Source of the DNA: Eledone cirrhosa
Taxonomy: Eukaryota
Length of the DNA: 64,000 nt
NCBI GenBank assembly: GCA_964016885.1
Contig: OZ024740.1
Span: forward strand, 139,748,001-139,812,000
Reading direction: 5' to 3'
Each line of letters starts with the position of its first letter. Position 1 is the stretch's first letter. Under the pieces are notes generated by a model. That model made no database searches and was not told where the DNA came from. It worked only from the letters and a program-made list of their open reading frames with translations. Made by a program: the position numbers and the translations under genes. Of the stretch, positions 287 to 63,788 are shown piece after piece.

Positions 287-485
287 AACGAAGGAAATGT
301 GGTAAGGAACCAGGTGGACCATAACGCACCAAAGTACTCAATACTTCGGGTAGTAGAGTGGGTAATAGGAACAAGTAAGACCCCGACGGCTGAGCTCAAG
401 CCGTTTCGACGGCTAATTCTGTACAGTACAGAATTAGCCGTCGAAACGGCTTGAGCTCAGCCGTCGGGGTCTTACTTGTTCCTAT
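287..485 (-). mobile_element. Short TA-embedded PLE-type 3' end (family A) with partial hammerhead ribozyme and fold-back palindrome
   Basis: Flanked by (TA)n on both sides. 365-485 is a palindrome of 60-bp arms around a 1-nt centre (425). It contains GAAA-CGGCT-tgagctc-AGCCG-TC (443-465 on +, mirrored on -), the 3' half of a type I HHR. The same sequence recurs at 19951-20099, 63627-63788 and as fragments at ~62702-62740 and ~53073-53105. Confidence 0.75.
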
Positions 486-530
486 ATATATATATATATA
501 TATATATATATATATATATATATATATATA

Positions 531-630
531 CAGGTTGTCCCCACAAAATGTATACACATTTTGATTACCTGTACAAGCAATACTTATTAGAATGCTGTTT
601 AAGTGCGTATACATTTTGGGGGATTCTCTA
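531..630. mobile_element. ~100-bp Tc1/mariner-type MITE
   Basis: Imperfect terminal inverted repeats caggttgtccccacaaaatgtatacac / gcgtatacattttgggggattctcta with TA at both ends. They resemble the ta-CAGGGTGTCCCAAAA termini of Tc1/mariner elements. Confidence 0.55.
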
Positions 631-645
631 TATATAAAGAAACAA

Positions 646-764
646 ACACACACACACACACACACACACACACACACACACACACACACACACACACACA
701 CACACACACACACACACACACACACACACACACATACACACACAAACACAAACACACACACACA
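646..764. repeat. (CA)n microsatellite
   Basis: Direct inspection. Confidence 0.97.
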
Positions 765-861
765 TATATATAGATGTGTACAATGTAAAAAAAAGGTCGG
801 AACAAATAACACAGAACAGTTTGTCTGAGGCTTTAACGATTCTACCCATCTACCACCCCAA

Positions 862-58328: not shown

Positions 58329-61300
58329 TCGGGGTGCTTTTCGGGATGGTCTTAATAAATAGTGGAGTAAGTAACAGTAAATATCCTAAACAACCGACAC
58401 ACTGACTTGTTTATAGTTGTAATGGCTCGTGTGGGACTATTCACACTTTTTGATTTTGCTGATAGCAACGGTTAGTGCAAATACGCCACAAGACTGATGA
58501 ACAGCAGACCTCAGGCTTTCTGTTCAGAGTTTTCCATGTCATGGGGTGAGGCTCACACACACATCCATGCATCTACCCATCCATTATATTTTCTCCCAGT
58601 TTATACAAACGCAAACAGACAATACGAGCATACTAAAAGAAAAGAAAATGAAAAGATAAAGTTAATATATAAAAAGATGAAAATTAATAGATAAAATAAA
58701 AGTTAATGCATTAAAATATATTAAGTTAATGCATAAAAATATATACGTATATACGTACATGCGTATATATTTACATATTTACATATATATATATTCGTAT
58801 ATATATATATGTGTGTGTGCGTACGTGCGTGTGTGTTTGTGTATGTGTGTATGTATACTACTACATTATCATACACACATATATTAGTTATTTCACACAC
58901 GCCCCCTCCCATATATATATATATATATATATATATATATATATATATATATTTACAATACTATTTTACTAATATAGATACAAGCGATAAAGAATAATTG
59001 AGCCGCTACGAAGAGCAGCAAAATATCCTTCGAATTACACCAGACACCTTTACAAAGAATGGACACATAGAAATAATACGGTGATAGGCAAAGTATCAAA
59101 GTGGGGAAATGTACTGATCAAAACTAGAGTATCTTTGAATCACATGTCTGCTCTATTAAGATTCATCCGAAGCAAAACTAAAGCAAAAGTTCTGTTGCCG
59201 GAAACATTTCTTCCAAAATGATAATTGTTTTCTTAGAGTTATCCCCCTTAGACCAAGCAAACGCCACTCATATTGCGTTTCTTTCTCGTTCGTGTTCATA
59301 ACTCCCTTTTATTACAAATCTAATCACGCGATACATTATAAGATATATATAGGTTTAGCTTAGCTGAATGGGCCTCCGTCGTTTTCAACGATGAATGTTA
59401 TATTTGTTTGATTAATGAAAGAGCCTGCTTGTGAAATGAATGTGGAAGTGACATAAATACGTTTAATCTTAACGTAATTTTTCGAAAGATTCTACTTGAA
59501 CAGTATGCGACAAGGCTGTCCCTTTGAATTACAAGTCCAACTATAAATCCTTTAAACAGCTTCCATCTACCCAGATTCACGGACATGGCTTTGGTTGACC
59601 GCCTCAATATGATCGTATCTTGGAACCTTATGACGTTAATTTCTTAAACATTCTGCCACGCATTGTTCACTGACTTCCGTACAGGACTGATATGTTTAAC
59701 GATAATGGCGGAATTTGAACGCAAAATGTAAATCACTGTAAATTAAATACTTCAGGGTATTTTTGTCCGACCCCAAATGATTCTGCTAAACTACCACCAT
59801 TACAATCAAATATATTTTCATACGCATACGTTTGTGTGTGTGTATATATACATATATATATATATATATATATATATATATATATATATATATATATATA
59901 TATATATATATATATATATATATATATATATATATATATATCTTTACACACCCATTTCTATATTAAACATTATTTATATATATAATGTAGTCCTAGAAAC
60001 ACAATGGCTGAGAGAGAGCGTGAGCGATGATGTGATCACAACTGGAATACTTTATCAAGGTTGACTAGTAACTAAATAGGAACAACTATAACACAAGCCG
60101 CCCTGATCACTCGTCTCTCTTTAGCTTCTTTCTCTTGTTCTCACTCTGTTTCATAGCCCCAAAAGCGACTCGCAAGAAATAGTACCGATATCTTCCTCCA
60201 AATCACACCAACTCACAGTCTCAGAGAAGGACTTGTTGGATGACATCTTCCTGGGTTCCCTGCACATAGGAAAAAGAAAGTATGGTTCAGGTTGAAATGC
60301 CTGCCAATTTAGTCGATCATATCGCCCCTCAGAACTTCTTTTACTAGTTTCAGTCATTAGATCTGCTCTCCCTTCTCTCTCTCTCTCTCTCTCTCTCTCT
60401 CTCTCTATATATATATATATATATATATATATATATATATATATATATATATATATATCAGTGGGCTAAATGAAAAGAAATTTACAGTTTACGCCTATAT
60501 AGAAGTAGCTGGCCACCTACGACGAGATCGAATTTCAATATGACGCCCCAATCCTATCATGAAACTCAATGTGATATGAAGCATCATGCTCAAGAACACA
60601 TGCTGCACAGTCCTGGAATCGAACTCATGCACTTTTGATTATGAGTCAAACAACCTAACTGTTATTCCAGGTGCCTTAATCACTCCAGGCTGGGGGGTCG
60701 TACAAAGTTTAGAGACGCTGACTAACTTTATATAAACATCAACATCAGAATATACATACACCACACCTATTAATACCAACATCATCACCACCCCGACTAC
60801 TATTACTTCCACCACCATTATCATTACCGCCACTAGTATCGTCAACGCTACTACTACTACTACTACTACTACTACTACTACTACTACCTCCTCTATCAGT
60901 AACTTTTGTCGCCAACATTACGTTTAACAGCCCCACCGTCTACTGAATCATAATTATACTATATAACAATCATAATTTGACACGAGAATCGATAATCATA
61001 TATATATATATATATATATATATATATATATATATATATATATATATATATATATATATATATATATATATACGTGAGAATAACGAAGCTCAGTTTATTC
61101 AAATATTCATTTATTATAGCTAAGTCGTGATCCGTGTTACTCTGAGGTTTCATCGATCTTAGCTATAGTAATGAAAAAAGGTGGCAAATGTTTATGTATG
61201 TCCGTGCTGGCTATATATATATATTTTTGTGTGTGTGTGTGTGTGTGTGTGTGTGTGTGTGTGTGTGTGTGCGTGTGCGTGCGTGTGTGTGTGTGTGTGT

Positions 61301-62799
61301 GTGTGTGTGTGTGTGTATGTTTGTGTATGTGTACAGTCGGTTCTTTGGTAACGAATCCAATCCGTTCCAGGATAACGTTCGTTATCATAATCTTTAATTT
61401 CCTCATCATTTAAAAAAAATATATATTTAGGGACAATTCGTTCTCGAACCTCATCAAATTCCAATGGTCTACACGCAAAACATGCATTTAAGAATTAATA
61501 AAACGATAAAATATATGCTTATAATGTTTCCAACATCAATACAAGTATGAGTAATCAAAAAGAAAGAAAATCGCTTTTGATTTATCGTTTTATTTACATC
61601 CATTGTGTCTTGCCTCATATATATCGTTAACAGAAGAGTGTGAATTTATCTAACAGACACCAGATTATTGAAAGATGTTGGCCCAAATTCCTGCACCAGC
61701 CAACGTAATACAGTTCTCCGACTCACTATTGTACGTCTTAGAAGAAATAATTTTTTTTTTTTTTTTGCAACGATATAATTGATCATCTATAACGATAGTT
61801 TTTCTGGGACCATTTTATTTGAATATGACCCACGAATTTGGTATTTGATAATAACGTTGCTACATCCAACTTTGAAAGACAGAAATATCTTGCTCTAAAT
61901 AACATATATCGTATAATGTTCCTATGTTGGGTTCTTTGAACGTCAGAAAGTTATCACATTTCGACTAAATTTAAAGTAGGCACACTTTAAAAGAACAATC
62001 CTATAGAACAAACGCACAACATGTAAGCTAGCAGAAAAGAATGTCCTGTAAATGTTTAAACAATGATGATGGGTGTGCCAAATTTGGTCAATTTAGTTGT
62101 AGTGATTAGTTTAGCTCGTTGCACTCTAAAATGGTCAGAAAATAAAATTTGAGTCCAAGCAGGTCATATTACATTTACAGCTTTCAATCATTATAAAGTG
62201 ATTATACCAAAATGACCTATGAAATCTGTTTCTGAATGTACATACTAGCAATTGGCAAATAGTGATATGTGGAGAAAAAGTTATATGACAGAAAAAATTT
62301 ACTATGAAGGTCAACATGATATATCGAATATCAACCAAGATATAAAAACTTCGTTATGCGATAAACATAACATATAGATAAATTGTAGCTCATATACAAA
62401 TAGATGTGTGTTTTGGTAGTTTCGGGAGGAAAATATAATTGTATATATATATATGCGATGAAATACCCATGATCGTTTGGTAAATCACTGATGAGGGACT
62501 CATTTTATAACATGTTATCCATGTGCAACCAGCAGTATTCTTCTCACCCATATTTTCATATATATATATATATATATATATATATATATATATATATATA
62601 TATATATATATATATATATATATATATATATGTGTGTGTGTGTGTGTGTGTAAACATATATGTGTATATATATATATACATATACATATATGAAAAGATT
62701 CAGGACCCCGACGGCTGAGCTACAGCCGTTTCGACAGCTACATATATTTATATATATATATATATATATATATATATATATATATATATATATATATAT

Positions 62800-63172
62800 C
62801 CGTTATGTTGAGAACAAATCTGTTGTTCTATTTAGCTGCTATTTTTTTAGTAGTAATTGTAGACAGCAAGTCTTTGATTTTCCCGCTTTTACTTCGGTCC
62901 AGTTTACATACGGGTCACTTTTACGACCTTCCAGACCTTTATTTGCTGGTAGGAGGTCATATATTTTGTCGTTCCTGGGACGTTTAGCCCTAGGAAAGGA
63001 AAATGCTTCTCTGATGAGCTTTGGTTTTCCATCAGAAATCCATCGGATTTATGAGGTTTTACAAAGCGAAACTGATCAGTAAGGGCCACTAGGAGAGGTA
63101 AATATTTATATTATATTTTTTAATGTATTTTAAAGAATTGATTGAATTTTACTTGTTCTGCTTATCTTAATA
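62800..63172 (+). mobile_element. TA-flanked non-coding element (family E) with canonical HHR
   Basis: Begins after (TA)n, carries the HHR at 63007-63085, and ends in an AT-rich tail plus tatatata. Confidence 0.65.
63007..63085 (+). ncRNA. Type I hammerhead ribozyme motif
   Basis: Stem I ttct/aggg (2 G-U pairs); CTGATGA (63011-63017); stem II gctttg/caaagc; GAAA (63068-63071); palindromic stem III ctgatcag; GUA cleavage triplet. Confidence 0.82.
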
Positions 63173-63626
63173 TATATATTAAACTACCCTGCTTTTAAAT
63201 TCCCTTTTTGGCATATTAATCAGTGTGAATTTTGGCTATCCTGTTGAGCTCTGCTGAGGATCGAATTCCAACCGTGACCATCTTCACTGAAAGTTTTCGT
63301 GAAATAGTCTTTTCAAGACTATACAGAGCATTTGTAGTTGTTCCAAATTGAAGGATGAGTATTTTATACTTTATTTTATCATGAATTAAGGCTCTATTGA
63401 TTTTTTCCCTGGATTTCACTAAATTCTGTTGGATAAATCTATATCCTGATTCTTTTTGAATTGAGTTTGAATTATTTTTCCCACATCTTACGTTAACTAT
63501 TTTCCCATTTTGACGCTATAGTCGTCACTTATATATTATGGAATACAGTTGGCTTCTTGCTAACAATACTTTCTATACCTTTCATTTATATATATATATA
63601 TATATATATATATATATATATATATA

Positions 63627-63788
63627 AGAGCTCAAGCCGTTTCGACGGCTATTAGAAATAGCCGTTGAAACGGCTTGAGCTCTGCGGTCGGGTTTAAACA
63701 TTTTCCTATTACCCACTCTACTACCCTAAGTATTGAATACTCTGGTGCGTTATGGTCCATCTGGTTCCTTACCACAACTCCTTCGTTA
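63627..63788 (+). mobile_element. Family A element in (TA)n with fold-back at HHR stem II
   Basis: Palindrome 63627-63683 centred at 63655. The tail is homologous to the reverse complement of 287-365. Confidence 0.8.

Follow-up and report, generated by a model that had tools for sequence, protein, structure and literature searches.

Introduction

Minimal hammerhead ribozymes occurring as single motifs in genomes have been described as 'probably related to truncated PLEs' (Penelope-like elements), pairs on opposite strands have been published as well, and a U3·A8 core variant is described in the same study (Cervera and de la Pena 2014, PMC4209133). Every listed PLE family of the Hydra clade except one targets (TA)n, and Hydra-1_Obim from Octopus bimaculoides was entered without a pseudo-LTR (pLTR) (Craig 2021, PMC8557442). 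By our own count, 14 of the 25 Hydra families in File S2 of that study (PMC8557442) carry U·U at positions 10.1/11.1 and 10 of 25 carry U17. Descriptions of PLEs include inverted 5' copies as well as palindromic sequence at inverted junctions. The function of the hammerhead in PLEs is called unclear (Craig 2021, PMC8557442), and cleavage proved dispensable for insertion in vitro (Frangieh 2024). Here we describe hammerhead elements in one window, the whole 64,000-nucleotide stretch of Eledone cirrhosa DNA that was analysed, and compare them with these systems.

Results

A descriptor scan identified nine distinct predicted hammerhead folds in the window, six with an exact core and three with a variant core (Table 1). 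For a complete exact-core fold the descriptor comprised CUGANGA, helices I-III, GAAA and NUH; all six exact-core folds join these parts through the three helices and are open at helix I, hence of type I. The folds are real. Exact cores are far more frequent than in shuffled sequence, the comparison that the earlier note on this DNA had named: seven were observed (including one mirror copy), whereas 100 local dinucleotide shuffles of the non-satellite sequence gave a mean of 0.09 and at most 1. One-mismatch cores numbered four (one of them a mirror) against a shuffle mean of 1.48, and because 4 of 100 shuffles reach four, a single variant core is weak evidence alone. Half-core matches (50, against a shuffle mean of 27.6 and a maximum of 42) were dropped as stand-alone evidence. 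In families A and B, for which half cores were previously proposed, GAAA, helix III and NUH are in place but CUGANGA is missing, the latter from all five family A pieces.

The complete cores that the earlier note had placed at 53946-54054(-), 57835-57892(+) and 63007-63085(+) were recovered as exact-core folds with N17 at the same bases, and the variant core at 14226-14276 was likewise confirmed as U4A with a mirror copy. The core given at 57374-57407 exists but is better drawn as 57370-57416(+), with N17 at 57412 and a mirror at 57325-57371(-). The decayed candidates at 52047-52086 and 61115-61167 gave no complete fold in the descriptor scan. Four of the nine folds are new relative to that note: 6582-6707(-), 63248-63329(+), 56130-56167(+) and 57650-57692(-).

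Table 1. Hammerhead folds, fold-back copies and endonuclease remnants in the window.
Feature	Position	Strand	Details
Hammerhead, complete type I, exact core	6582-6707	-	U·U at 10.1/11.1; long branched loop II; predicted N17=U at 6587; 196 nt from 3' (TA)n
Hammerhead, U4A core	14226-14276	+	U·U at 10.1/11.1; predicted N17=U at 14271; 21 nt before (TA)25; 3' end of Hydra stub
Mirror copy of U4A hammerhead, right arm	14359-14409	-	Descriptor scan
Hammerhead, complete, exact core	53946-54054	-	A·A at 10.1/11.1; self-complementary helix III; predicted N17=U at 53952; 63 nt from (CA)n/(TA)n
Minimal hammerhead, U3·A8 covariant core	56130-56167	+	G10.1-C11.1; 6-nt palindromic helix III; predicted N17 56163
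Two mirror hammerheads, exact core	57325-57416	57370-57416 +, 57325-57371 -	Centre of fold-back at 57370, inside helix I and immediately 5' of core
Minimal hammerhead, U4A core	57650-57692	-	6-bp helix I; palindromic helix III; predicted N17=U at 57656
Hammerhead, complete, exact core	57835-57892	+	U·U; AU-only palindromic helix III; predicted N17 57886
Hammerhead, complete, exact core	63007-63085	+	G10.1-C11.1; 10-nt palindromic helix III; predicted N17 63081; multi-copy family
Hammerhead, complete, exact core	63248-63329	+	U·U; 8-bp helix III; predicted N17 63323; high-copy family D (about 63180-63586)
Decayed hammerhead candidate	16220-16257	-	Lacks the first core bases but retains helix I and palindromic helix III; read from sequence
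Decayed candidate	52047-52086	+	GAAAC..GUA half, without CUGANGA
Decayed candidate	61115-61167	-	Without helix II
Family A copy 1	288-482	-	Fold-back centred at 425 in putative helix II; putative 3' half of hammerhead only
Family A copy 2	19953-20097	+	Fold-back centred at 19985 in putative helix III
Family A copy 3	63627-63786	+	Fold-back centred at 63655 in putative helix II
Family A fragment	62693-62740	-	Starts in putative helix II
Family A fragment	53068-53103	-	Inverted arm only
Family B copy 1	3725-3979	-	Fold-back centred near 3871; putative 3' half core at 3843-3867
Family B copy 2	57952-58208	-	Fold-back; one arm starts at GAA position, other near predicted cleavage site
Family C copy	53165-53283	-	CUGAUGA without GAAA half; relatives at 62455-62557, 12425-12490, 12600-12665
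Small fold-backs of 3' tail common to 53946 element	6043-6200		No hammerhead part
Hairpin	3432-3702
Hydra-clade PLE GIY-YIG endonuclease, C-terminal piece	13127-13296	+	Left arm of inverted duplication
Hydra-clade PLE endonuclease C-terminus, 109 aa	15337-15669	-	CxxC..E..N..CxH
Very decayed Hydra-like endonuclease remnant	16703-16891	-	Not significant alone (tblastn E 0.15-0.89; HMM iE 1)
Second GIY-YIG PLE remnant	5150-5590	-	By eye Neptune/Nematis-like, with CCHH-like residues and a cysteine linker; 3' region repeated in inverted orientation at 5737-5889

Core and pair variants in the window include U·U, A·A or C·A at 10.1/11.1, U4A, U3·A8 and long helix II inserts. U·U at 10.1/11.1 is present in five of nine folds, U17 in four and G10.1-C11.1 in two, and in six of nine helix III is a short palindrome. 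The recurrence of U4A, which occurs twice in the window, was not found in published literature. In folding predictions the hammerhead is the monomer minimum free energy (MFE) structure in none of the nine cases and lies 0.5-6.6 kcal/mol above it. The comparison with Rfam models that the earlier note had suggested gave a negative outcome: no hammerhead model is among the matches listed for the window (150 of 255), and three local scans returned only HH9, at 10.9 bits against a cut-off of 52, so that the hammerhead cut-offs were not reached. The other Rfam matches were noise of microsatellite or hairpin miRNA type. Six of the seven folds measured lie at most 210 nt from a 3' microsatellite, against 37% of random positions, whereas the earlier picture of short elements bounded by TA on both sides does not hold throughout, several folds being preceded by 280-1100 nt without a microsatellite. 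The local density is six exact-core families per 42 kb of non-satellite DNA, a value for one window that gives no genome count.

Positions 62800-63586 were compared with 1822 contigs of sequencing run X1 and 3443 reads of X9, a reduced-representation DNA library in which read starts and ends say nothing on cleavage. The folds at 63007-63085 and 63248-63329 both belong to multi-copy families, in reads as well as contigs. At 63007-63085, the helix II mismatch G63035·A63051 is replaced by T-A in one subfamily (depth 2072) and by G-C in another (1603), depths over this interval not being copy numbers; positions 63075-63076 of helix III change jointly from AT to TA in all four runs with the palindrome kept, and G63055T restores an A-U pair. 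Of the two folds compared in this way, the stem covariation proposed earlier as a check is seen in this one, as compensatory changes in helix II (G-C versus U-A) and a swap in palindromic helix III. In family D, G63299A occurs in about half, and no partner change at 63262 is present among the variants listed (40 of 212), which would weaken helix II. None of 13 listed variant sites falls in the family D cores (42 of 407 positions), against an estimated expectation of 1.3, a difference that is not significant. Upstream, some contigs of this family have (TA)n at 63230 and others a longer, different sequence at 63241, of which 30 letters were seen; in run X1 the family reaches very high depth across some 350 nt. 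A single metagenome match to the family D pattern (L002) was bacterial-looking coding DNA with no similarity to the window and was set aside as chance.

The two GIY-YIG PLE remnants reported earlier were upheld by HMMER, by a match to GIY-YIG clusters in the Atlas (score 0.96) and by residue motifs. The Hydra-type C-terminal GIY-YIG, in which CxxC and CxH lie on either side of conserved E and N, is found at 15337-15669(-) and 13127-13296(+), both in one stub. A full HMMER search with the 109-aa remnant gave 3218 relatives at E<=0.001; its identity is 44% to a 696-aa RT+EN protein (P0149) that carries DKT, a CxC..C linker and the Hydra-defining CxxC/E/N/CxH residues. Further criteria of the clade are an RT with RWK and DKT motifs and a CxCX5C linker; no RT is present in the window. 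Word-indexed protein searches returned no relatives of either endonuclease remnant, and Pfam nothing relevant on five window ORFs. A viral-contig scan with the Hydra alignment left one locus of 46 candidates (L001), an endonuclease fragment on a phage-like contig with no DNA similarity to the window, which was uninformative. The U4A hammerhead at 14226-14276 lies about 930 nt past the endonuclease stop codon in one duplicated locus, so the claimed junction of a PLE remnant with a ribozyme stands: the fold ends the stub that carries the Hydra-clade C-terminus. It is the one complete fold of nine linked to a protein-coding remnant, an EN end. The second remnant (5150-5590) has no intact hammerhead in the descriptor scan.

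Variable 5' truncation with a shared 3' end and an inverted 5' copy was observed in families A and B and at 57319-57422 and 5737-5889. In family A, three copies have an identical last base ahead of (TA)n but three different fold-back junctions. Of the eight fold-back junctions, six are located within a ribozyme helix or next to one, whereby the catalytic core is removed, a placing that was not found in published literature. Fold-back copies either have no core left or are predicted to hold it inside a long duplex. Head-to-tail units with complete hammerheads are absent from the window, and no listed tandem row overlaps a core.

Discussion

We consider the hammerhead elements to be 5'-truncated 3' ends, i.e. 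pLTR stubs, of at least nine EN-bearing PLE families, mostly of the Hydra clade, inserted successively into (TA)n, and give this reading a probability of roughly 0.8. Of the two origins that the earlier note had offered, stubs of many PLE families or retrozyme-like RNAs, the former is favoured by the EN end upstream of one ribozyme, the shared 3' and differing 5' ends of family A, the PLE-typical inverted 5' arms and a core signature matching that of published Hydra ribozymes. Because only one of nine folds is linked to a coding remnant and the window contains no RT, the other families are assigned by resemblance. Counting against the stub reading, the one EN-linked ribozyme has the non-consensus U4A core, and U·U at 10.1/11.1 also occurs outside Hydra, in an axolotl retrozyme.

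Judging from published PLE biology, the element's GIY-YIG endonuclease would nick (TA)n and the reverse transcriptase would copy the RNA from near its 3' end and usually stop early, so that mostly the last 100-300 nt, with the ribozyme, would remain. In many copies a local hairpin, frequently one of the ribozyme helices, may then self-prime an inverted arm, which would remove the catalytic core or bury it in duplex. In full-length parents, the ribozyme would cut the tandem precursor RNA. Ribozymes with a short palindrome as helix III would probably act as dimers, and those with a stable hairpin there possibly as monomers. Most stubs in the window are predicted to be dead relics.

Retrozymes, i.e. 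tandem non-coding units whose transcripts are self-cleaved to monomers, circularised and reverse-transcribed, are very improbable here. They are known in a mollusc, derive from pLTRs and have dispersed monomers (published), and the hammerheads of the window are indeed of type I, but none of the 100 tandem rows listed (period up to 500) contains a hammerhead, copies are single or inverted, the folds look like PLE ribozymes in their short helix I and their variant cores, and one fold is joined to an endonuclease remnant. Since none stands in a head-to-tail array in the window, the elements are not retrozymes as defined, and we rejected this identity, the core loss or predicted burial in fold-backs also speaking against the earlier retrozyme-like proposal. 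Less remote, though still unlikely, is that some families (A, B, C and D) derive from PLEs but are non-autonomous, their master copies being short or hairpin-shaped and mobilised in trans by Hydra or Neptune enzymes. The lack of CUGANGA from family A, the shortness of the TA-flanked families A-C (100-260 nt), the depth of family D and the published finding that in rotifer pLTRs alone are enough for integration in trans would agree with this; however, the family A junction differs in each copy, as independent truncations would, and family D continues further upstream in other copies.

There is scarcely any likelihood that AT-rich, palindrome-rich DNA produced the folds by chance. The Rfam scores far under cut-off and the near-chance level of half cores and single variant cores fit such an origin, which is already refuted for exact cores by their excess over shuffles and is opposed by the compensatory changes among copies and the matching Hydra signature. 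Just as implausible is that the host has retained the ribozymes as elements for RNA processing or double-stranded RNA: six families do have intact cores and the fold-backs are predicted to form long duplex RNA if transcribed, yet the copies are multi-copy, truncated, nested in microsatellites and in many cases core-less, and no host gene was identified in the window.

The dense TA-targeted ribozyme system proposed earlier agrees with the high local density and the folds near microsatellites, but is of an already published kind, that of truncated-PLE minimal hammerheads and TA-targeted Hydra PLEs including one from octopus; the window adds new families to it. A more speculative and rather doubtful proposal is that the PLE reverse transcriptase favours the hammerhead's own helices as pause and snap-back sites, turning ribozyme-bearing 3' ends into core-less hairpin mini-elements, and that the hammerhead population of this genome is unusually large and diverse, including an active natural U4A core. 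The ribozyme fold would therefore shape integration products whether or not it cuts; if true, a motif of as yet unsettled function in PLEs would have a role independent of cleavage. Should genome-wide numbers match the window, the genome would offer a very large natural collection of hammerhead variants, with copies that can be aligned to look for covariation. It would then also provide truncation and inversion junctions in the thousands, with which to probe what the ribozyme contributes to PLE integration; its function is called unclear (Craig 2021) and its cleavage was dispensable for insertion in vitro (Frangieh 2024).

Comparison with known systems

With non-LTR retrozymes (PMC7229834; Li, Clavereau and Pollet 2026 preprint) the elements share type I hammerheads, mostly non-coding pieces and pLTR ancestry, but window repeats are inverted, not direct, and form no tandem units. 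Rotifer Penelopes (Arkhipova et al. 2013, PMC3846280) similarly have palindromes at inverted junctions, read as self-priming, and captured flanking DNA; in the window the junction palindrome is often a ribozyme helix, a link not made in the parts of that paper considered here. The second remnant resembles, by eye, canonical PLEs of Neptune/Nematis type in its cysteine linker, GIY-YIG with CCHH-like residues and inverted 3'-region copy, and differs in that the copy lacks an intact hammerhead. Like minimal PLE hammerheads (PMC4209133), the window families are heterogeneous, mostly single motifs with opposite-strand pairs, palindromic helix III and a U3·A8 variant, although G10.1-C11.1, highly conserved there, occurs in two of nine folds here.

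With Hydra-clade PLEs (PMC8557442) there are both differences and shared features. The window has no full-length copy or RT and no direct repeat of a ribozyme-bearing end (partial tandem or direct pLTRs), Hydra-1_Obim likewise having no pLTR; by eye, the window family sequences differ from Hydra-1_Obim. Several folds have very long helix II or loop II inserts, and the linked stub has a UTR of about 1 kb and a U4A core, whereas 25 of 25 published families keep U4. In common are a C-terminal GIY-YIG whose E and N are enclosed by CxxC and CxH, a hammerhead near the 3' end, the (TA)n target, frequent U·U and U17, and the inverted 5' copy, known from Penelope-13_HM.

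Hammerhead folds in the window

Microsatellites abound in the window, which is eukaryotic DNA and holds many copies of one SINE-like repeat, presumably similar to octopus SINEs; this repeat lies at 26784-26944, 18164-18466, 23586-23740 and 50386-50566, among others, and some copies are tandem or palindromic. By eye, a decayed LINE-like coding remnant (7285-8150, minus strand) has motifs of an RT end and others rich in cysteine and histidine; the single frame searched with Pfam had no hit.

Hammerheads were sought with a descriptor consisting of CUGANGA, helix II (positions 10.1/11.1 may be open), GAAA, helix III, NUH and helix I of at least 4 bp; the numbering and consensus core follow in part general knowledge of the ribozyme. 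The descriptor was loosened stepwise after candidates had been seen, and the null, 100 local dinucleotide shuffles, was redone at each of the last three steps. Exact cores lay above chance: they gave seven matches, six of them distinct, against a shuffle mean of 0.09 (maximum 1), and a stricter version gave six against 0.16 (maximum 2). Allowing one core change added four matches against a mean of 1.48, and since four were equalled in 4 of 100 shuffles, the case for the variant-core folds depends in part on their surroundings. Half cores often arise by chance (50 in the window; shuffle mean 27.6, maximum 42). A microsatellite lay at most 210 nt downstream of six of the seven folds measured, the figure for random positions being 37%. 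The Rfam hammerhead models, proposed as a check in the earlier note, did not recognize the window folds among the 150 of 255 rows listed or in three local scans.

The hammerheads are real and richer than the earlier note said: its complete cores were recovered, its three predicted cleavage sites proved correct in the descriptor scan and its variant core at 14226-14276 reappeared as a U4A fold with a mirror copy, but four further folds had been overlooked. The fold it placed at 57374-57407 is complete but extends over 57370-57416, and its decayed candidates at 52047 and 61115 gave no complete fold. Its description of the elements as short and TA-bounded holds for some only, as several run 280-1100 nt upstream. 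Different ribozyme-bearing elements form back-to-back pairs at 53870-56305 (53952 minus with 56163 plus) and 57536-57950 (57656 minus with 57886 plus), each element facing outward, toward a microsatellite.

Hammerhead folds, fold-back centres and the satellite of the window
Feature	Position	Strand	Remarks
29-bp satellite	28234-50060		about 753 copies, 95% matches, recurring higher-order variant
Exact-core fold	6582-6707	-	descriptor scan
Exact-core fold	53946-54054	-	descriptor scan
Exact-core fold	57370-57416	+	cleavage-site base (N17) 57412; mirror copy 57325-57371(-)
Exact-core fold	57835-57892	+	descriptor scan
Exact-core fold	63007-63085	+	descriptor scan
Exact-core fold	63248-63329	+	descriptor scan
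U4A-core fold	14226-14276	+	one-change scan; has mirror copy
U4A-core fold	57650-57692	-	one-change scan
U3·A8-core fold	56130-56167	+	one-change scan
Fold-back centres, family A	425, 63655		putative helix II
Fold-back centre, family A	19985		putative helix III
Fold-back centres, family B	about 3871, about 58085		one arm begins near predicted cleavage site
Fold-back centre	57370		helix I, four bases ahead of core
Fold-backs centred away from ribozyme	6114-6197, 54298-54615

Copies and covariation

Sequencing runs were matched with 62800-63586 only; of the 11 listed, none recorded as RNA, four were aligned at 80% likeness and gave 1822 contigs (X1) and 3443 reads (X9) from organism A, and 63 (X5) and 12 contigs (X7) from organisms B and D. 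The variants listed comprise 40 of 212 rows and the indels 12 of 32. Stem covariation among copies, whose absence the earlier note would have taken as refutation, was found in helices II and III of the 63007 ribozyme. Its mismatch G63035·A63051 becomes U-A in one subfamily (X1 depth 2072, equal to that of A63051) and G-C in a second one (depth 1603), and G63055T re-forms an A-U pair. Positions 63075-63076 change jointly from AT to TA in all four runs, preserving the helix III palindrome; in the three contig sets an A-to-U change at N17 matches this swap in depth. For A63037T a partner change was absent among the 40 of 212 variants listed. The same 40 left core, helix I and helix III of the 63248 ribozyme without change and held no partner for G63299A, present in about half of its copies; the indels listed (12 of 32) at 63309-63314 sit in the U-run of its helix III loop. 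In some contigs of this family (TA)n precedes 63230, and in others 63241 is preceded by a longer stretch of foreign sequence, so its 5' ends are variable.

Stubs of Penelope-like elements or retrozymes

The window elements are probably new families of ribozyme-bearing stubs, i.e. 5'-truncated 3' ends, of Penelope-like elements (PLEs), explained by a known system. Three copies of family A stop at the identical base before (TA)n with three different 5' junctions, the pattern of 5' truncation, and 62800-63786, where three different tails follow in chain with TA tracts between, is best read as serial insertion. The earlier note had alternatively suggested retrozyme-like RNAs, which also carry hammerheads. 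Their definition (PMC7229834; bioRxiv 10.64898/2026.07.22.740005) calls for tandem units with a ribozyme in each; none of 100 tandem rows in the window overlaps a core, which argues against retrozymes.

A link to a likely parent element is visible in one place. For the 109-aa frame 15337-15666(-), 3218 relatives were found at E<=0.001; it aligns at 44% with the C-terminal end of an RT+endonuclease protein of 696 aa and has retained CxxC, E, N and CxH, features of the Hydra clade of PLEs according to Craig et al. 2021 (PMC8557442). Its mirror remnant 13127-13296 is followed by a UTR of about 930 nt, then by the U4A ribozyme and (TA)25, so that a GIY-YIG remnant is joined to a hammerhead as the earlier note had seen. 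The arms are 89-98% identical by segment, flank included; as both stem from one inverted duplication, the link is a single observation. This nested duplication spans about 3.4 kb (12707-16122), with (TA)25 at 14293-14342 as its centre. It takes in a flank of about 250 nt that is not PLE and has a SINE tail (12831-13079 vs 15874-16122, 96.8%), and it contains a second small fold-back, 12707-12799; capture of flank by a PLE or a fold-back at the DNA level could account for it. Remnant 5150-5590(-) is a canonical-PLE-type GIY-YIG (Atlas clusters at 0.96, in which 11-27% of the members have Pfam GIY-YIG); its 3' region recurs as an inverted copy, and an intact ribozyme is absent. Another remnant, Hydra-like and very decayed, at 16703-16891(-), does not reach significance by itself, but a decayed ribozyme is present downstream of it, at 16220-16257. 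A phage-like contig (L001, 3001-3554), possibly a chimeric assembly, changes abruptly to a fragment of a Hydra-type endonuclease that is frameshifted.

Family C, a short TA-flanked repeat (53165-53283, 62455-62557, 12425-12490, 12600-12665), has CUGAUGA in three of four copies and the GAAA half on the same strand in none; the opposite strand of one copy carries a GAAAC..GUC half. The short unique inserts 3309-3376 and 53730-53810, between TA tracts and without a ribozyme part, may be tails truncated short of the ribozyme.

Fold-back junctions

Eight fold-backs not centred on TA belong to families linked with a whole or half ribozyme, and six have their centre in or beside it, a count in which families A and B were identified via the very half cores counted and which is blind to elements truncated shorter than the ribozyme; short truncations would often land there anyway. 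All five family A pieces lack CUGANGA. For whole fold-backs, folding predicts long duplexes (-64 to -183 kcal/mol), so they would not cleave. SINE-derived and TA-centred palindromes are likewise present (26784-26944, 12707-12925). In the decayed fold-back element 3432-3702 the centre is a long hairpin, after which come an NUH-like triplet and a G run; this too may be a junction centred on a ribozyme. Self-priming at palindromic junctions was described for rotifer PLEs (Arkhipova et al. 2013, PMC3846280); a narrow literature search found no published link of it to ribozyme helices.

Starting from the observed folds, positions, copy heterogeneity and one endonuclease link, we propose that repeated target-primed insertion into (TA)n, early termination and snap-back would have shaped these elements. 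A PLE protein nicks AT-rich DNA and primes internally according to the literature; it also aids ribozyme cleavage, and insertion in vitro did not need cleavage (Frangieh 2024).

Comparison with known systems

The narrow search found no natural U4A core, Lünse 2017 (PLE ribozyme variants) lying outside its reach; 'U4A' is absent from the main text of Perreault 2011 (figures outside the comparison). No cephalopod ribozyme survey was among the 25 of 51 matches listed for hammerhead and octopus literature, and the part compared of a 2026 octopus repeat annotation, with 31 recently active Penelope-like families, leaves hammerheads unmentioned. The comparison also drew on PMC11167929, PMC13282606, PMC6765202 and PMC3088659. 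Two leads deserve genome-wide attention, the positions of the fold-back junctions and the U4A core.

The remainder is familiar. Genomes with thousands of single minimal hammerheads, heterogeneous and including opposite-strand pairs, were described (about 4,000 in coelacanth and 9,000 in Xenopus); these are probably truncated PLEs, and minimal PLE ribozymes cleave weakly and depend on dimers (Cervera and de la Pena 2014, PMC4209133). Six of our nine folds have as helix III a 6-10-nt palindrome or near-palindrome without a stable monomer hairpin, which predicts action as dimers; in three, the hairpin has -1.4 to -5.7 kcal/mol. Octopus has TA-targeted, hammerhead-bearing Hydra PLEs (Craig 2021, PMC8557442); File S1 of that paper includes Hydra-1_Obim of Octopus bimaculoides and names (TA)n as the target of every Hydra family except one. 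By our own counts from File S2, U·U occupies 10.1/11.1 in 14 of 25 Hydra families and in 5/9 window folds (G-C 2/9, A·A 1/9, C·A 1/9), U17 occurs in 10 of 25 and in 4/9, and the 3' ribozyme starts 87-210 nt from the end in 23 of 24 families. Close to their 3' ends, the tails of families A (288-370) and B (57950-57975) bear a short motif like GAG(C/T)AC, to which, by eye, three published Hydra consensus tails are similar. By eye, the window tails do not match the sequence of Hydra-1_Obim.
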